Origin: Afipia sp.
GTDB lineage: Bacteria; Pseudomonadota; Alphaproteobacteria; Rhizobiales; Xanthobacteraceae
Direction of reading: 5' to 3'
Length of the DNA: 64,000 nt
Assembly (NCBI GenBank): GCA_017308595.1
Contig: JAFKER010000014.1
Span: 15,062-79,061, forward strand
Part shown: one piece after another, positions 2,026 through 31,823 of the stretch
Numbering within the stretch: position 1 is the first letter of the stretch
Layout of the letters: each line of letters begins with the position of its first letter
Position numbers and translations under genes: made by a program
The notes under the pieces: model-generated
What the model saw: only the letters and a program-made list of their open reading frames with translations
Database searches by the model: none
Told to the model about the DNA's origin: nothing

Positions 2026-3312
2026 TTATTTCGAAGTCCCGGCGGAAACCACGCGTTTTCCGAGGAAGGCATCCACCGCTTGCGCGACGGAACCGACCGT
2101 CCGCGAACGCCAGTTTTCCGAAACCAGATGCTGCAGGTCGTCCTTGTTCGAGACGTAGCCGAGTTCGACCAGCACGGACGGGACATCATGCGCCTTGAGG
2201 ACCTTGAAGCCGGCTGACTTCAGCGGGTGCTTATGCATCCGAGCGACGGTCTTCATCTCATTGGCCAGCATCTTGGCAAATCGATTTGAAAACGTCCGGG
2301 TCTCACGCTGGGTCAGATCGATCAGAATATCCGCCACCTCGGCGGGCTCTTCCGTCAGGTTGATACCGGCAATGGCATCGGCCTTGTTCTCCGCCTCGGC
2401 GAGCTTTTCGGCCTCCGCGTCAGACGCCTTGTCCGAGAGCGTATAGATCGTGGCGCCCTGCGCATCGCCTTCCCGTTTTGGCAACGCATCGGCATGGATC
2501 GAAACGAACAGCGCAGCCATGTTGCTGCGTGCGATCTTCACGCGTTCTCCAAGCGGGATGAAGGTGTCGTCGTCCCGGGTCATCACCACGCGGAACTTTC
2601 CGCCTTTCTCGATCCGGTCCCGAAGAGCCTTGGCGAAATCGAGAACGATTGTTTTTTCGGCCTCACCGCTGGCAGCCTGGGTCCCGTTGTCGACGCCCCC
2701 ATGGCCAGCATCGATCACAATCACAGGCCGGGCATCGTTCGCCCTGGCGGACCCGGTCGCGCCTGTGGTTTCACTGGAACTATCGGCAACAATCGTCGGG
2801 CGCAGTTGAATCTTTTCGCCCGCTGCCTGCGCAGCCTTGAAAGCTGCGCGGTCGACGGCGGCAAGTTCGACCACAAGCCGCGACGGCTGCCCGTTCGCGG
2901 CATCCATGACGTAGGCTTTTTCGACCTTTGCCGGGCCGGTCAGATCGAAAACCACGCGCGACCCACCGGGCATCACGAGGCCGTAGCGAAACGCACGAAT
3001 CAGCCCTCGCCCCGAAGCGCCGGTCCCGGCCGGGAGATCGAAGGTCACCTGAGGAATGTCGAGGACAACCCGATAAGGATCGCCGAGTACGAATGCTCGC
3101 ACGTCTATCTTGCGATCGAGGTCCAGGATGAAGCGGGTTTGCTTGGAGTCGCCCGCCACGCGCACGTCGGAGGCGACTGGAAAGGCTTCCGCAACCGCCG
3201 GCTGCGCCGGGCGCGACTCAACCGCATGGGCCGCCGGAATCATGGAACACAGGAATGCTGCAGCGCACACCCAAAAGGCAGCCCCAAATGTGCGTATTTT
3301 CCTGAGGTTCAT
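2026..3312 (-). CDS. amiC: N-acetylmuramoyl-L-alanine amidase (AMIN + Amidase_3)
   Basis: Motifs VIVIDAGHGGVD, EK, LFVSIHADA, VLVELGY. Signal peptide after MNLRKIRTF, so the start was moved from 3744 to 3312. Confidence 0.92.
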   Translation of the reverse strand: MNLRKIRTFGAAFWVCAAAFLCSMIPAAHAVESRPAQPAVAEAFPVASDVRVAGDSKQTRFILDLDRKIDVRAFVLGDPYRVVLDIPQVTFDLPAGTGASGRGLIRAFRYGLVMPGGSRVVFDLTGPAKVEKAYVMDAANGQPSRLVVELAAVDRAAFKAAQAAGEKIQLRPTIVADSSSETTGATGSARANDARPVIVIDAGHGGVDNGTQAASGEAEKTIVLDFAKALRDRIEKGGKFRVVMTRDDDTFIPLGERVKIARSNMAALFVSIHADALPKREGDAQGATIYTLSDKASDAEAEKLAEAENKADAIAGINLTEEPAEVADILIDLTQRETRTFSNRFAKMLANEMKTVARMHKHPLKSAGFKVLKAHDVPSVLVELGYVSNKDDLQHLVSENWRSRTVGSVAQAVDAFLGKRVVSAGTSK

Positions 3313-3377: not shown

Positions 3378-4036
3378 CAACGGCGGGACGATTGCCGCGC
3401 TGTGTTGCAGCGCTGTGACGCTTCGCTTGCCAGAACGCGGTGTTCGACGTATGTATGAAGGGCTGACGGTTTAAACTTGCGGTTGTGTCGCGTTCAGCTT
3501 CCCGGTGCAGCGCCTGTTCCTCGCATTCAGTTAGAGGTTCCAGCGTACCTTCCGACCCTCTCCAGCCAGCGCAGCGCGCGGTTGACACGGAGCGGCGGTT
3601 ACCAGCCCGAGCGGCTACTCCCATAACCGGCGACTGCTGCTGCAAGGCAGCGGACCATCGAGAGCCAGCGCGCGCACCATGCGCTGCGGTGGCACTGTCA
3701 GCAGCGAACCGGCTGCCCACGTCGGCGGCAGGATATGGCGGCACCTTGCCGCCCCAGTATACGGCGGCTTTGGCCGCCCAACGAATTAAACGGGCCGACG
3801 CTTGATGCGCCAGACTCTATTGCCGAACGGGATTGTTCAAAAGATCCCATCGATGCCAGCAACGATACGACGCGAAACTTTTCCGCGTCGCGCTTCGCTG
3901 ACATCGCGGTCGGCATGGTGCCTCGGGTGGCGTTTTGGCCTTCCCCTCACCCCCGAATCAGGTGGACCGTCACGAACCCCGGCTAAGCGCCACGCGCTGG
4001 CCGCCGAACGTGCCGTTCGCCGTCAAGAGCTCCAAA

Positions 4037-25924: not shown

Positions 25925-28900
25925 ATGCGCATCGAACGCCGCTACACCAAAGCCGATCAGTCACCCTACGCCGCGATCGATTTCAGACTGACGACAAGCG
26001 AGATCCGCAATCCCGACGGCTCGGTGGTGTTCCGCCTTGAGAACGTGGAAGTGCCGGAGTTCTGGTCGCAGGTCGCCTCCGACGTTCTGGCGCAGAAGTA
26101 TTTCCGCAAGGCGGGCGTCGCCTCGCGCCTGAAGAAGGTCGAGGAAGAAACCGTCCCCTCGTGGCTGTGGCGCTCGGTGCCGGATACCGAAGCTCTCGCC
26201 CTGCTCCCCGAATCCGAGCGGATCGGCGGCGAGCATTCCGCCAAGCAGGTGTTCGACCGCCTTGCCGGCTGCTGGACCTATTGGGGCTGGAAGGGCTCGT
26301 ACTTCTCCTCGGAAGAAGACGCCAAAGCGTTCTACGACGAACTGCGCTTCATGCTCGCCAAGCAGATGGTCGCGCCGAACTCGCCGCAGTGGTTCAACAC
26401 CGGACTGCACTGGGCTTACGGCGTCGATGGTCCCGGCCAGGGCCACTACTACGTGGACTGGAAGACCGGAAAGCTGACCAAATCCAAATCGTCCTACGAA
26501 CATCCGCAGCCGCACGCCTGCTTCATTCAGGGCGTGGACGACGACCTCGTCAACGAAGGCGGCATCATGGACCTGTGGGTGCGCGAAGCGCGCCTGTTCA
26601 AATACGGCTCGGGCACCGGCTCCAACTTCTCGCGCCTGCGCGGCGAAGGCGAAAAGCTTTCGGGCGGCGGCCGCTCAAGCGGCCTGATGAGCTTCCTCAA
26701 GATCGGCGACCGCGCTGCGGGCGCGATCAAGTCGGGCGGCACCACGCGCCGCGCGGCCAAGATGGTCGTGGTCGACGCCGATCATCCGGACATCGAGACC
26801 TATATCGACTGGAAGGTGAAGGAGGAGCAGAAGGTCGCCGCGCTCGTCACCGGCTCCAAGATCAACCAGAAGCACCTCAAGGCCATCATGAAGGCCTGCG
26901 TGAACTGCGAAGGTTCAGGCGACGACTGCTTCGATCCCGAGAAGAACCCGGCGCTGCGCCGCGAAATCAAGCTGGCCCGCCGCGCGCTGGTGCAGGACAA
27001 CCTGATCAAGCGCGTGATGCAGTTCGCCAAGCAGGGCTACAAGGACATCTCGTTCGACACCTATGACACCGATTGGGATTCGGAAGCCTACCTGACCGTT
27101 GCGGGCCAGAACTCGAACAACTCGGTCTCGCTGAAGGATGATTTCCTGCGCGCGGTGGAAACCGACGGCGACTGGAATCTGATCGGCCGCACCAACAAGA
27201 AGGTGACGAAGACCATCAAGGCCCGCGACCTGTGGGAGAAGATCGGTTACGCCGCGTGGGCGAGCGCCGATCCCGGCCTGCACTACAACACCACCATGAA
27301 CGACTGGCACACTTGTAAAGCCAGCGGCGACATCCGCGCGTCCAATCCGTGCTCGGAATACATGTTCCTCGACGACACGGCGTGCAACCTCGCCTCCGCC
27401 AACCTCTTGACCTTCTACGATACGCAGACCCGCCGCTTCGACGTCGAAGCCTACGAGCATCTCTGCCGCCTGTGGACGGTCGTGCTCGAAATCTCGGTGA
27501 TGATGGCGCAGTTCCCGTCGAAGGCGATCGCCGAACTCTCCTACGAATTCCGCACGCTGGGCCTCGGCTATGCCAACATCGGCGGCCTGCTGATGACCAT
27601 GGGTCTATCCTACGACTCGAAGGAAGGCCGCGCGCTCTGCGGCGCGCTGACCGCCGTCATGACCGGCACGAGCTACGCCACCTCGGCTGAAATGGCGAAG
27701 GAGCTTGGCCCCTTCCCCGGCTACAAGAAGAACGCCGCGCACATGCTGCGCGTGATCCGCAACCATCGCCGCGCCGCGCACGGCGAAGCGACGGGCTATG
27801 AAGCGCTCGCCGTCAATCCGGTGCCGCTCGATCACGCAAGCTGCCCGCAGGGCGACATCGTGACCCGCGCCAAGGCGATCTGGGATGCGGCGCTCGACCT
27901 CGGCCAGCAGCACGGCTACCGCAACGCGCAGACCACGGTGGTCGCGCCGACCGGCACCATCGGCCTCGTGATGGACTGCGACACCACGGGCATCGAGCCG
28001 GACTTCGCGCTGGTGAAATTCAAGAAGCTCGCTGGCGGCGGCTACTGGAAGATCATCAACCGCGCAGTCCCCGAAGCGCTGCGCGCCCTCGGCTATCCCG
28101 AAAGCGAGATCGCCGAGATCGAAGCCTACGCTGTCGGTCACGGCTCGCTCGGTCAGGCGCCGGGCATCAACCGCTCGACCCTGAAGGCCAAGGGCTTCAC
28201 CGATGAAGCCCTCGACAAGATCGAGAAGCAGCTGCCGACCGCCTTCGACATCAAGTTCGCCTTCAACAAGTGGACGCTGGGCGAAGACTTCCTGCGCGAT
28301 ACGCTCAAGATCGATCCGGAAGCGTCCAACGCGCCGGGCTTCGACCTGCTCGCCGCGCTCGGCTTCACCAAGCGCGAGATCGAAGCCGCCAACGTGCACA
28401 TCTGCGGCGCGATGACGGTGGAAGGCGCGCCGCACCTCAAGGCCGAACACTACAGCGTGTTCGACTGCGCCAATCCCTGCGGCAAGATCGGCAAGCGTTA
28501 CCTGTCGGTGGAAAGCCACATCCGCATGATGGCGGCCTCGCAGCCCTTCATCTCGGGTGCGATCTCCAAGACCATCAACATGCCGAACGACGCCACGGTG
28601 GAGGACTGCAAGTCCGCTTACCTGCTGTCGTGGAAACTCGCGCTCAAGGCCAACGCGCTCTATCGCGACGGCTCGAAGCTCAGCCAGCCGCTGAATGCAC
28701 AGCTCATCAGCGACGATGACGAAGACGAAGACGTGATCGAGGCGTTCCACGACAAGCCGATGGCGGCACGCACCGCCCAGGTGTCGGAGAAGATCGTCGA
28801 GAAGCTGGTCGAGCGTATCGTGGTGATGCGCGAGCGCGAGAAGATGCCGGATCGCCGCAAGGGCTACACCCAGAAGGCCGTGGTCGGCGGGCACAAGGTT

Positions 28901-29677
28901 TATCTCCGCACCGGCGAATACGATGACGGCCGCATCGGCGAAATCTTCATCGACATGCACAAGGAAGGCGCGGCGCTGCGCTCCTTCGTCAACAACTTCG
29001 CCATCTCCGTCTCGCTGGGTCTCCAGTACGGCGTGCCGCTGGAAGAATATGTCGACGCCTTCACCTTCACCCGCTTCGAGCCCGCAGGCCCCGTGCAGGG
29101 CAACGACTCGATCAAGTTCGCGACCTCGATCCTCGACTACGTGTTCCGCGAACTGGCCGTGAGCTACATGGGCCGCTTCGATCTCGGACATGTCGATCCG
29201 AGCGACATGGGCTTCGACGCGCTCGGCAAGGGCGTCGAAGAAGGCAAGGCGCCCGAAGCCCACGGCGCAACCAAGTATCTGTCGAAGGGCCTCACCCGCT
29301 CACGCACGGATAATCTGGTGGTGATGCGCGGCGGCGCTGCGGCCATCACGGCGAACGACGACAGCGCGCCTGCGGGCGGCGCGAAGGTGACGGCGCTCTC
29401 GGGCGCACATGTGGGCGACAGTGTGGACGGCGCGGTGGCCCTCAAAGTGGCCGAGCCCGAGCGCGATCTCTCGCCGACGGAAAAGCTGGAAGCGCAAGCG
29501 TGGAGCAAAGCGGGCTCAGCGGCACAGGCCGCGCCATCCAAGGCCGAGCGCCGCGCCGAAGCAAAAGCCCGCGGCTACGAGGGCGACATGTGCACGGAGT
29601 GCAGCAACTTCACGCTGGTGCGGAACGGCACGTGCATGAAGTGCGATACGTGTGGCAGCACGACGGGGTGTTCGTGA
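25925..29677 (+). CDS. nrdJ: Vitamin B12-dependent class II ribonucleotide reductase with TSCPD domain and C-terminal zinc ribbon
   Basis: [35 protein letters not shown]; ISKTINMP; YRDGSK; C-terminal CTECSN...CDTCG. Confidence 0.96.
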
Positions 29678-29695: not shown

Positions 29696-29725
29696 AAATG
29701 GCCGCCCTTTTGAGCGGCCATTTTT
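29696..29725 (+). terminator. nrdJ intrinsic terminator
   Basis: aaatggccgc...gcggccattttt, 18 bp after the nrdJ stop. Confidence 0.8.
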
Positions 29726-29789: not shown

Positions 29790-29837
29790 GAGGTATATCC
29801 TAAAATGAGGCAGAACTGATTCGTTCGGCCTGAAATA

Positions 29838-29980
29838 CCAATGCCGAGGCGAACCTCGGCATTGGAACCCGCGAAGCACTGTTGAGGTACTTACGGGGGC
29901 ATCGAGAAAGCAGACGCTTCCTCTCAGTGGCATGAGCAGTTAAGCGATTCTGCAGTCCGGCGTCCAGCGGAGCCTCAACG
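29838..29980. ncRNA. Putative structured RNA or leader upstream of the CBASS operon
   Basis: Perfect 12-bp hairpin ccaatgccgagg-cgaa-cctcggcattgg (29838-29865). A long-range stem gttgagg(29881-29887)/cctcaac(29973-29979) encloses three short hairpins. Folded by eye; no known family recognised. Confidence 0.4.
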
Positions 29981-30018
29981 TTTTCCAACGCCTAATACGC
30001 GTAGATGGAGCACGTCTG

Positions 30019-30222
30019 ATGCCAAAGTATACCCGCAACTCCGGGAACGAATGGAACCCCTCTGAGGTCAAACAACTTCGACGAGAAGCCAGTCAAAATA
30101 CGCCAACGCGTGTTATTGGCCTGCATCTCGGGCGCACCGAGAATGCGGTTCGCAATCGAGCTTGCCAAGAGGGCATCTCTCTGAAGCCGACCAACCAATC
30201 TCCCTACAATCGCAAGAAGTAA
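30019..30222 (+). CDS. Small basic HTH-like protein (Myb/GcrA-N-like pattern), first gene of the CBASS operon
   Basis: RBS ggag at 30007-30010; W-x4-V-x2-L...IGLHLGRTENAVRNRA pattern; 13 nt to the next ATG, which has its own RBS. Confidence 0.75.
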   Translation: MPKYTRNSGNEWNPSEVKQLRREASQNTPTRVIGLHLGRTENAVRNRACQEGISLKPTNQSPYNRKK

Positions 30223-30235
30223 CCGGGAGACCGAC

Positions 30236-31123
30236 ATGGTATGGAATGGCGTAACAGCCCGCTTCAAGCAGTTCGACACAAATTTAAGGCTGACTAACGA
30301 CCAAATATCTGACGGAACAACAAAACACAAAGGCATAACAAAATGCCTCAACACCAATTACTACGAGATGTCGTCCGAAACCAGCAACTCGATGCTAGTC
30401 GGATCATGGGGCAAGCAAACGCGCATGCGCCCTCCTCGAGATATTGATCTGCTATATGAACTGCCTACCAGCGTTTACCATCGCTTTGAAAAATATATCG
30501 GCAACAAGCAGTCCGCACTACTTCAAGAAATAAAGGGCGTATTGGAAAAAACATACCCCAGCACGGCAATGCGTGCCGACGGACAGGTAATAATCGTCCG
30601 GTTTAATACAATTAACGTCGAAGTCGTCCCCGCATTTCCGCTGACGAATGGTCAGTACTGGATATGCGACACGAACAACGGCAGAAAATACAAAGAATTC
30701 GACGCCGTTGCCGAAATAGAAAATATGAAAAAAGCCAACAACGAGACAAATGGCAACGCAAGATTTCTTACGAAGTTTATGAAGGCCTGGCAGCGCGAGT
30801 GTAGCGTTCCGATAAAGTCCTTTTGGATTGAATTGCTAGCAATCGATTTCTTGTCGAGTTGGCCATACAAGCAAAGTAGCCCGTTTTATCATGACTGGAT
30901 GACGCGTGACTTTCTAAAATATCTGTGCGGCAAGAAAAACTCGCATATCGTCGTGCCTGGGACTTACGAATATATCGGACTAGGTGACGATTGGTTTAGC
31001 CGAGCCGAGACAGCGCACAATCGCGCTGTGAAGGCGGAGCAATACGAATACAGAGATGAAATCCAAGCTGCAGGTGAGGAATGGCAGAAGATATTCGGCT
31101 CACAGATTCCGATCCACGTGTGA
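30236..31123 (+). CDS. SMODS/cGAS-DncV-like nucleotidyltransferase (CD-NTase)
   Basis: Pol-beta NTase motif VGSWGKQTRMRPPRDIDLL (hGS...DxD); third acidic residue in VEVVPAF; KAWQRE and KSFWIELL C-lobe motifs; EEWQKIFG end; 295 aa; low GC. Confidence 0.9.
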   Translation: MVWNGVTARFKQFDTNLRLTNDQISDGTTKHKGITKCLNTNYYEMSSETSNSMLVGSWGKQTRMRPPRDIDLLYELPTSVYHRFEKYIGNKQSALLQEIKGVLEKTYPSTAMRADGQVIIVRFNTINVEVVPAFPLTNGQYWICDTNNGRKYKEFDAVAEIENMKKANNETNGNARFLTKFMKAWQRECSVPIKSFWIELLAIDFLSSWPYKQSSPFYHDWMTRDFLKYLCGKKNSHIVVPGTYEYIGLGDDWFSRAETAHNRAVKAEQYEYRDEIQAAGEEWQKIFGSQIPIHV

Positions 31124-31644
31124 TGGAATTACGTCGCGCGGAAATCATCAAGGAATGCCTGAGGCAATCTGAATCCTGTCTTTATACATCAACTATGCTC
31201 TTCGCTTGGTTGCGCCGTGTTCGAATTCAAAGGCAATTGTTCGTTGCGCTGCCCATATTACTCGGGGGCCTCGCGGGCGTCACCGTTCTGAAGAATGCTT
31301 GGCCAGATTGGGTAATTGCTGTGCTAGCCCTTGGAGCAAGCCTATTTCCGGCACTGGCTGATGCGCTAAAAATACAGACAAGCGTGGATGAACTAGCTAG
31401 GGCTGCGGCAGAGTATAAGGTCTTACAAGATCGCTTTCGTATCAACGCTAATCTTACTTCGCTGCAAGATGTGGACGAAGCTCAGCGAGTGTTGAGCGAT
31501 CTAATGGATCGGATGGATATAGTACGAAGCACGTCTTTGACACCTCCCGAGAAATACTTCAGCGAGGCGCAACGAAAGATAGATCAGGGACACTATGATT
31601 TCGATGTTGACGACGGTCCATCGAGAAAGAACGAACCAGAGTAG
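31123..31644 (+). CDS. SLATT-family 2TM effector (CBASS membrane effector)
   Basis: TGATG overlap with the CD-NTase stop; two hydrophobic helices (LFVALPILLGGLAGVTVL; WVIAVLALGASLFPALA), then a helical tail ending AQRKIDQGHYDFD, resembling SLATT_5/6. Confidence 0.8.
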   Translation: MELRRAEIIKECLRQSESCLYTSTMLFAWLRRVRIQRQLFVALPILLGGLAGVTVLKNAWPDWVIAVLALGASLFPALADALKIQTSVDELARAAAEYKVLQDRFRINANLTSLQDVDEAQRVLSDLMDRMDIVRSTSLTPPEKYFSEAQRKIDQGHYDFDVDDGPSRKNEPE

Positions 31645-31720
31645 CGCGGATATTGCGTAGCGAAATCTGGGAACGACTGTGTTGCGCACTCCCGCATTGC
31701 GCTTCGCTCCATTGGGCTAG
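31641..31720. repeat. Degenerate GTAG-family REP palindrome
   Basis: Left arm gtagcgcggatattgcgtagcgaaatctggga, right arm tcccgcattgcgcttcgctccattgggcta; the GTAG overlaps the SLATT stop codon. Confidence 0.65.
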
Positions 31721-31823
31721 AGCGTTTCGGTCACCCCAATCACTCAAGCTCTCGTGACCTTGCCTCCTACTCTCCCCATCCCCATCTAGAGCGGACCGGC
31801 CCACGCACGAGTCCCCCGCCTCC

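Follow-up and report, generated by a model that had tools for sequence, protein, structure and literature searches.

The window analyzed here, a 64,000-nt stretch of an Afipia sp. genome (contig JAFKER010000014.1), carries a conserved structured leader of about 210 nt in the 341-nt spacer between nrdJ and a 67-aa open reading frame (ORF). The leader is without a match in Rfam and is owned by this small gene, whose helix-turn-helix (HTH) product resembles GcrA. Region 29808-30015 is, in our judgment, probably the structured 5' leader of the mRNA of the 67-aa gene, which encodes a protein similar to Myb proteins and the GcrA DNA-binding domain (DBD), and in this genome it very probably also heads the co-transcribed genes of a CD-NTase and a 2TM effector. 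The architecture of the leader is independent of the downstream cargo. An initial annotation had proposed a candidate structured non-coding RNA or leader in this region, and a structured leader just upstream of the 67-aa gene was borne out by a conserved and covarying fold. The features are listed in Table 1.

Conservation and covariation of the leader

A BLASTN search with the spacer, for which the loci carrying the small gene served as search set, matched six species genomes with 71-86% identity over ~150-235 nt immediately in front of the small gene. Matches were found in Nitrobacter, Rhodopseudomonas infernalis, Pseudorhodoplanes and Xanthobacteraceae metagenome-assembled genomes (MAGs), and the flanking DNA was unalignable. 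With a covariance model built from seven sequences, 19 distinct full-length matches with scores of 97-190 bits were obtained. Within a sample of 150 genomes of the family, matches occurred in four, two of which were new, giving a total of about 21 leaders. The three strong matches in this sample all precede the small gene and nothing was found elsewhere apart from one weak match of 27 bits, which lies away from any small gene and is probably spurious. All 21 matches are located on the coding strand, and the 19 aligned leaders leave 9-37 nt between the end of the match and the small gene's ATG. The covariance model was negative in about 140 small-gene loci of other phyla; the leader is confined to one alphaproteobacterial sub-clade of the small-gene family. 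A 14-mer scan of viral contigs produced matches at chance level only, none of which passed the covariance model.

The comparison with Rfam, which the initial annotation had suggested, yielded no family: two cmscan scans against Rfam 15, one of them tight on 236 nt, were without a match, and the best scores stayed far below their thresholds (SorY 17.4 bits, threshold 111; istR 13.3, 45; BjrC1505 15.5, 50). This negative result extends to the models of ROSE-type thermometers, BjrC sRNAs and known riboswitches in that library. A well-supported RNA family without a match in Rfam 15 is thus gained, with about 21 members so far, a clear fold and cultivable Nitrobacter, Rhodopseudomonas or Afipia strains as material for direct study.

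In the model-fitted alignment, the 12-bp hairpin P1 and the downstream rod domain were 92.3% paired, a value reached by none of 500 shuffles, and slid registers gave 31-41%. Two-sided changes were present at 19 of the 37 pairs compared with 9.2±1.6 in the shuffles (again 0 of 500), and 6 of the 12 P1 pairs were among the pairs changed on both sides. Compensatory changes in P1 and in P2, the outer helix of the rod, were likewise visible in a structure-blind MAFFT alignment of 19 homologues, for example as CG in 11 and UA in eight sequences, or as CG in ten, UA in six and UG in three. Covariation among homologous loci, on which the initial annotation had staked its proposal, is therefore present in both alignments. 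The folding z-score of the 219-nt leader was -4.15 on the plus strand and -5.74 on the minus strand.

The 12-bp hairpin at 29838-29865 and the helix formed by GTTGAGG and CCTCAAC had been given with exact coordinates and sequences in the initial annotation, and both are conserved with compensatory changes. For the three small inner stems described there the outcome was mixed: in the window all 16 pairs are Watson-Crick pairs, but across the homologues these stems are 68.5% paired, which is no better than shuffles (182 of 500). The interior of P2 folds as one elongated rod, which was recovered in 18 of 19 homologues when each sequence was folded to its minimum free energy (MFE) between the outer-helix arms.

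P1 is present in a single copy in the 4.6-Mb genome. A repeat or repetitive extragenic palindromic element was rejected, as hairpin and intergenic region are unique in the genome. Such perfect hairpins are rare: among the longest 25 of the 31 inverted repeats of the window, four combine a short gap with an exact 12-nt seed and are not palindromic, where we would estimate about 0.1 by chance. An integron attC site was rejected as well: the sequence reads GTTGAGG...CCTCAAC on either strand and does not show the R''-R' box order 5' RYYYAAC...GTTRRRY 3', and conservation does not extend to the GTT, for which GTC and GCT occur as variants.

Table 1. Features of the leader, its surroundings and related loci (coordinates refer to the window unless a locus is named).
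Feature	Coordinates	Strand	Basis or remark
nrdJ, class II B12-dependent ribonucleotide reductase	25925..29677	+	Pfam Ribonuc_red_lgC, Ribonuc_red_2_N, TSCPD; conserved upstream neighbor
nrdJ intrinsic terminator, stem and T-run	29696..29723	+	terminator scan
Candidate -10 hexamers TATATC and TAAAAT	29794-29799 and 29801-29806 (29794..29806)	+	predicted
P0, variable inverted repeat AGGCAGAAC / GTTCGGCCT	29808..29831	+	loop holds TGATTCG
TGATTCG heptamer, GANTC CcrM site	29817-29823	+	exact in 12 of 19 leaders
A-rich tract GAAATA	29832..29837		U-rich tail after P1 on the minus strand
P1, perfect 12-bp hairpin	29838..29865	unassigned	CCAATGCCGAGG-CGAA-CCTCGGCATTGG; loop CGAA on +, UUCG on -
Conserved single-stranded linker ACCCGYGAAG	29866..29880	+	alignment
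Rod domain, P2-P4, one long rod	29881..29979	+	per-sequence MFE, covariation
P2, outer helix	29881-29888 / 29972-29979	+	includes GTTGAGG 29881-29887 and CCTCAAC 29973-29979
Rod helix CG/CG	29894-95 / 29968-69	+
Rod helix GGGC/GUCC	29897-29900 / 29962-65	+
Rod helix GCAGA/UCUGC	29910-14 / 29949-53	+
Rod helix CGCUU/AAGCG	29915-19 / 29942-46	+
Rod helix CUCA/UGAG	29923-26 / 29933-36	+	apical loop GUGGCA
Second GANTC, CGATTCT, in the rod	29945-29951
Invariant CGTCCAGCGG in the rod	29961-29970
3' module hairpin	29978..30015	+	ACGU 29978-81 pairs with ACGU 30012-15
Anti-Shine-Dalgarno helix, UUCCA/UGGAG	29983-87 / 30006-10	+	contains Shine-Dalgarno GGAG 30007-30010
Inner small hairpin of the 3' module, ACGC/GCGU	29988-91 / 29999-30002	+
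67-aa Myb/GcrA-DBD-like HTH gene	30019..30222	+	aligns to GcrA; Atlas structural matches
CD-NTase, CBASS cyclase	30236..31123	+	Pfam SMODS; PADLOC Cyclase 6e-134; variable cargo
2TM/SLATT effector of type I CBASS	31081..31644	+	PADLOC 2TM effector 1e-67; overlaps CD-NTase
~25-nt insertion between 3' hairpin and ATG	L030 2947-3003; L110 550-605; L191 1078-1133
nrdJ-tail repeats	L203 (=L031) 2562-2615, 1823-1873; L204 1796-1891; L020 714-815

Strand of the structural elements

Wobble pairs enabled a separate assignment of the structural elements to the two strands. On the plus strand P2 displays 21 G-U and no A-C combinations, and the adjacent helix 16 and four, respectively. Because of this excess of G-U over A-C the rod is regarded as a plus-strand RNA, and the U-G pairs present in the helix which pairs with the Shine-Dalgarno (SD) sequence agree with this assignment. 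P1 shows the opposite pattern, with no G-U and ten A-C cells on the plus strand, the latter being G-U pairs if P1 is read on the minus strand. The A-C cells have at least 4-5 independent origins and occur between close relatives (locus L200 vs. L201, L196 vs. L192). Moreover, RNAalifold assigns P1 a consensus energy of -25.1 kcal/mol when read on the minus strand, as against -15.0 kcal/mol on the plus strand, and the tract upstream of P1 is A-rich in all leaders, so that a U-rich tail follows the hairpin on the minus strand. This tail reaches U5-U7 in three of 19 leaders (U7 in L192, U6 in L191, U5 in L196). As wobbles, energy and U-rich tail all fit the minus strand, P1 looks like a minus-strand terminator within the leader.

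The initial annotation had raised this very option for the 12-bp hairpin. In its full form, it describes an antisense system, in which a minus-strand RNA covers the leader, perhaps together with the first part of the small gene, and has P1 as its intrinsic terminator; the conserved blocks would then partly represent the antisense RNA and its promoter, and the RNA would pair with the leader and repress the small gene and its cargo. The properties of P1 just described speak for such a system, as does the UUCG-type loop, which falls on the minus strand. The terminator-like character of P1 gained support; no antisense promoter was found. A lenient consensus scan of 20 leaders, which is not proof of absence, detected no conserved sigma-70-like promoter on the minus strand from P1 to 80 nt past the small gene: nothing passed in the window or in 16 of the 19 other leaders, and the four isolated 8/12 matches are at unrelated positions. 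In addition, the tail of P1 in the window itself is only UAUUUC, a weak U-tract which was missed by the terminator scan, and the wobbles of the rod and of the 3' hairpin are those of a plus-strand RNA. We therefore consider an antisense system possible and rather unlikely.

AGTTAA and CGTCCA, the two most invariant blocks of the rod, flank a GANTC and have a spacing of exactly 17 nt in every case (29945-29970 in the window). On the minus strand we read them as TGGACG-N17-TTAACT with a methylation site near -17, which may resemble a weak promoter of the GcrA class and would suit an antisense transcript; a coincidence of RNA structure is possible as well. In the putative -10 element the key A2 is missing, and conservation of the element does not extend to the divergent leaders.

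Further roles of P1 were considered and rejected. Since many homologues have ACG in place of the ATG within P1, the hairpin contains no conserved small ORF and a leader peptide does not apply. Base-pairing between the 3' arm of P1 and CCAACGCC further downstream was dismissed for want of covariation.

The 3' module, putative promoter signals and a proposed model of regulation

In 16 of 19 leaders, the conserved tract ACGU-UUYUCC downstream of the rod forms a helix with GGAG-N-ACGU, which encloses a small covarying hairpin. These figures derive from per-sequence folds, which were used because the MAFFT alignment is not structural in this part; MAFFT combined with RNAalifold predicted no pairs for the 3' module. 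Compensatory changes comprise ACGU/ACGU to GCGU/ACGC and GCC/GGC.

The position of this hairpin is one of the arguments for a riboswitch-like sensor on the plus strand, in which the rod, possibly together with the linker, would bind a small molecule and the 3' SD hairpin would act as expression platform. The ligand would perhaps be linked to nucleotide or DNA-damage metabolism, given the recurrent genes for ribonucleotide reductase (RNR), LexA and IrrE-like M78 peptidase in the neighborhood. The fold covaries, and nucleotides of the rod that are invariant are concentrated in unpaired or asymmetric internal loops (UACUU, AGAAAGC and CGUCCAGCGG). The SD-pairing hairpin abuts the 3' arm of P2 with two nucleotides common to both, and the distance to the ATG does not vary. 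Ligand aptamers, however, are not typically rods that lack a multi-helix junction, and no covarying alternative (switching) helix was found: by our reading, neither the pairing GAAAGCG/CGCUUUC nor that of CCAACGCC covaries. The distribution is narrow, and the regulated gene encodes a DNA-binding protein and not an enzyme or transporter. A riboswitch therefore appears improbable.

At the upstream end, the arms of P0 vary by locus yet remain complementary. The top GcrA-bound CcrM consensus is TGATTCG, more broadly YGAKTCK, and in GcrA-activated promoters such sites are positioned around -20 or between +2 and +30 (PMC4647560). The heptamer at 29817-29823 is identical to the published top consensus and fits YGAKTCK. 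The window contains three copies of TGATTCG compared with 17±4 expected from shuffles, which fits an avoidance of strong GcrA/CcrM sites; the other two are located on the minus strand at 2996-3002 and 3954-3960. A canonical GcrA is encoded in the genome (198 bits, in a search aimed at GcrA only). In most leaders TAnAAT-like hexamers are found 6-17 nt upstream of the heptamer, and these candidate -10 elements, judged from their sequence, would put TGATTCG at about +1 to +17. The leader start thus shares the exact top motif with the GcrA/CcrM promoters of Caulobacter and other Alphaproteobacteria; it differs from them in that the site is a putative one and that the adjacent gene encodes a free-standing GcrA-DBD-like domain, which might read the site itself.

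Expression data were available from a relative, as no RNA run contains the organism of the window, a bioreactor MAG. In the RNA sequencing (RNA-seq) contigs of a related isolate, the 3' end of nrdJ is followed by 123 nt of other sequence and then by the leader (29809-29994, seven differences), with a depth similar to that of nrdJ. The contigs also cover the end of the small gene, where a terminator is located directly 3'. In three runs the contigs break within the rod (~29887-29916) and do not span the diverged bulk of the small gene (29995-30173). Such a break and the conserved U-tract GUUUUCC directly after the closing helix of the rod would be in line with a stand-alone small RNA of ~180 nt, which ends at the rod plus GUUUUCC and acts in trans, the small gene being transcribed by read-through only. 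We give this explanation a slim chance, since the U-tract, besides being short, makes more sense as the anti-SD side of the covarying hairpin, the element never occurs away from the small gene, and a rod of 100 nt makes a poor intrinsic terminator.

Several observations weigh against the interpretation of 29808-30015 as a plus-strand 5' leader with an SD switch. The roughly 20 leaders are related and belong to one family, so that the shuffle statistics overstate significance, and the most conserved blocks are invariant and hence without covariation. In the unbiased alignment the consensus energy of the rod is nearly equal on both strands (-11.7 vs. -11.3), so that the plus-strand call rests on the wobble counts and the model-fitted alignment. 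In the full-length MFE structure of the window's leader, a pairing of GGCAUCG with the start codon takes the place of P2; this pairing was rejected, as it is not conserved. A consensus promoter scan detected no canonical sigma-70 promoter in the window. Occlusion of the SD is modest, with a mean probability of being unpaired of 0.33 compared with 0.48 for shuffled upstream sequence, and in three leaders (L030, L110 and L191) the insertion of about 25 nt puts the working SD outside the 3' hairpin. Finally, the region, across which the initial annotation had called for a transcript, is covered by the relative's contigs, but these are unstranded Logan contigs that carry neither strand nor transcript ends and could include DNA. 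In the subgroup with the insertion, the latter additionally creates a mini-ORF, GAGG-N3-AUG-CAU-UGA, within the hairpin, along with another SD (AAAGG) that is free.

For the plus-strand leader, we infer control of translation at the SD, a trans factor acting on the rod, an input of GcrA/CcrM at the promoter and an antisense terminator in P1. Transcription would start a few nucleotides upstream of P0, and the initially transcribed region would carry the methylatable GcrA site TGATTCG, which may provide a cell-cycle, epigenetic or GcrA-like input at the DNA level. The 3' hairpin, by pairing the conserved ACGU-UUYUCC tract with the SD region, would hold translation low. The rod could serve as a platform for a trans factor that shifts the equilibrium of the 3' hairpin or the stability of the mRNA, this factor being either a small ligand or a protein, perhaps the gene's own basic HTH product. 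P1 would most likely be a separate minus-strand element, that is, an intrinsic terminator or insulator against antisense transcription across the leader.

A more far-reaching version combines three layers into one control module at the head of defense-island cargo: a CcrM-methylated GcrA site read by GcrA or by the encoded GcrA-DBD-like protein, a plus-strand sensor RNA which gates the translation of the small protein and of the co-transcribed effectors (CBASS in the window), and a cis-antisense RNA which ends at the 12-bp hairpin. In this version the 67-aa family would be a universal regulator of defense islands and the RNA its alphaproteobacterial input device. That all of this holds jointly seems doubtful to us, and we consider it unlikely. 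A link from epigenetic control by CcrM/GcrA to the expression of defense islands would be new, if true.

Leaders which occlude the SD are known from ROSE-type RNA thermometers and similar 5' untranslated regions of Alphaproteobacteria, which likewise consist of several hairpins, the last of them pairing a pyrimidine tract with the SD near the ATG, and which likewise occur in Hyphomicrobiales. The present leader is about twice as long and has neither the U(U/C)GCU anti-SD sequence nor the bulged G; its gene encodes an HTH protein in place of a small heat-shock protein, the leader consensus leaves the AUG itself unsequestered, and the three leaders with the insertion keep the hairpin with the SD outside. 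Orphan structured cis-regulatory RNA motifs from comparative genomics, such as riboswitch candidates and ribosomal-protein leaders, are similar in that they covary, have a fixed position, precede one gene family and contain conserved loops. By this analogy, autoregulation by the small basic nucleic-acid-binding product is plausible. In contrast to such motifs, the clade is narrow and the fold rod-like, and the gene family occurs in all phyla without the leader RNA.

The small gene, its cargo and the locus downstream of nrdJ

The 67-aa protein aligns to residues 2-60, i.e., the DBD, of the genome's own GcrA with 29% identity (E 5e-4), and its structural neighbors in the Atlas are GcrA and Myb proteins. 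The family comprises more than 5000 clusters with 60-90% identity and is present in at least 578 species genomes of nearly all phyla, including the candidate phyla radiation (CPR). A protein search points to dozens of additional homologues with at least 78% identity in JGI and Logan contigs. Invariant are the residues NTPTRVIGL...SLKPTNQSPY, and neither a Pfam nor an NCBIfam model covers the family. The initial annotation had considered a type I toxin-antitoxin logic, which does not fit, because the product is a basic HTH protein conserved across phyla and not a hydrophobic, toxin-like peptide.

Upstream of the small gene, RNR is found in many loci, and in a cluster of 28 loci the neighbors are a class II RNR and/or an IrrE-like M78 peptidase. 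In 16 loci the upstream neighbor is LexA or LexA fused to a C5 methyltransferase, and Xre and WYL regulators occur there as well. An example of the fusion is a 525-aa protein of a LexA-S24 peptidase and a C5 cytosine methyltransferase (L164, 801-2378); LexA is recurrent in other phyla. M78 peptidases of the IrrE/ImmA type with a C-terminal zinc ribbon are located between nrdJ and the RNA in several relatives (L029 2041-2784, L035 2033-2689 and L192-L196). Downstream, the neighbors are variable and rich in defense genes: ThsB/TIR, Cap15, 2TM, PLD, P63C, HsdS, SMODS and PDC-S13. The family may be a general defense-island regulator or a reader of methylation. Extremely conserved, unannotated and located at the head of diverse defense genes, it deserves attention. 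Literature searches gave no account of the small protein acting as a defense regulator; none was aimed at the RNA motif itself.

A small HTH gene at the head of variable defense cargo is reminiscent of CapH/CapP and CapW. The likeness to CapP/CapH extends to gene order, as several relatives are arranged as peptidase, RNA, HTH gene and cargo, with the M78 peptidase directly upstream. In contrast to these systems the HTH is Myb/GcrA-like and not of the Xre or WYL type, and the window is without a peptidase. We know of no structured RNA described for CapH/CapP or CapW.

The cargo distinguishes between a leader of the small gene and an RNA specific for the cyclic oligonucleotide-based antiphage signaling system (CBASS), be it a leader, a ligand or activator of the CD-NTase, or part of an antisense immunity logic. 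In the window the CD-NTase starts 13 nt past the stop codon of the small gene without a terminator in between, so that the two genes are probably co-transcribed and the leader probably heads the CBASS transcript. Among the ~21 leaders, a CD-NTase follows the small gene only in the window and in L030, and within the small-gene family as a whole it adjoins the gene in one of 80 species loci; the 67-aa product is not a CBASS accessory. The ~19 other leaders precede genes for TIR (L109, L031, L032), Cap15 (L197), P63C (L200, L035), DUF2442 (L193), HNH-associated genes (in L192 an unnamed 116-aa gene and then an HNH_5 gene, a faint match) or nothing. In the isolate with RNA-seq data the terminator directly follows the small gene, and the GC content of the CBASS differs from that of leader and small gene. 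With a CD-NTase behind only two of ~21 leaders, the leader belongs to the small gene and is not CBASS-specific. The defense operon, which the initial annotation had taken as the defining context, is thus not what the RNA tracks, and a function as RNA ligand or activator of the CD-NTase is unsupported for the same reason. The distribution largely refutes a CBASS-specific RNA, which we regard as extremely improbable.

CD-NTase and 2TM/SLATT effector constitute a minimal type I CBASS. GC content changes in steps, from 62-70% in the host flanks to 52-55% in leader and small gene and 44-50% in the CBASS. The 24 relatives of the same genus share nrdJ with the window; leader and small gene are not found in them at this place. 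The right border of the variable slot lies near 31641, and homology with the relatives is back at ~31641-31757. Cyclase and effector joined, as cargo, a regulated small gene that was already present in the slot downstream of nrdJ, and the leader heads the CBASS in this genome only because the CBASS was inserted behind the small gene. Any control that acts on the leader probably extends to CBASS expression in this genome.

The slot 3' of nrdJ is hypervariable within the genus (L010-L028) and, depending on the species, contains different defense-like genes, among them those for TIR_2, DUF4062, DUF2971, MauJ-like and pentapeptide-repeat proteins. The window is without an nrdJ-tail repeat, and neither an attC site nor att direct repeats were found in it. 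In several relatives the last 18-34 codons of nrdJ, which encode a Cys-rich zinc-ribbon tail, are repeated one to two times downstream. These repeats have the appearance of att-type duplications, left behind as one island after another inserted into the 3' end of nrdJ; alternatively, they may represent the NrdJ-like zinc-ribbon C-terminus of the M78 peptidase.

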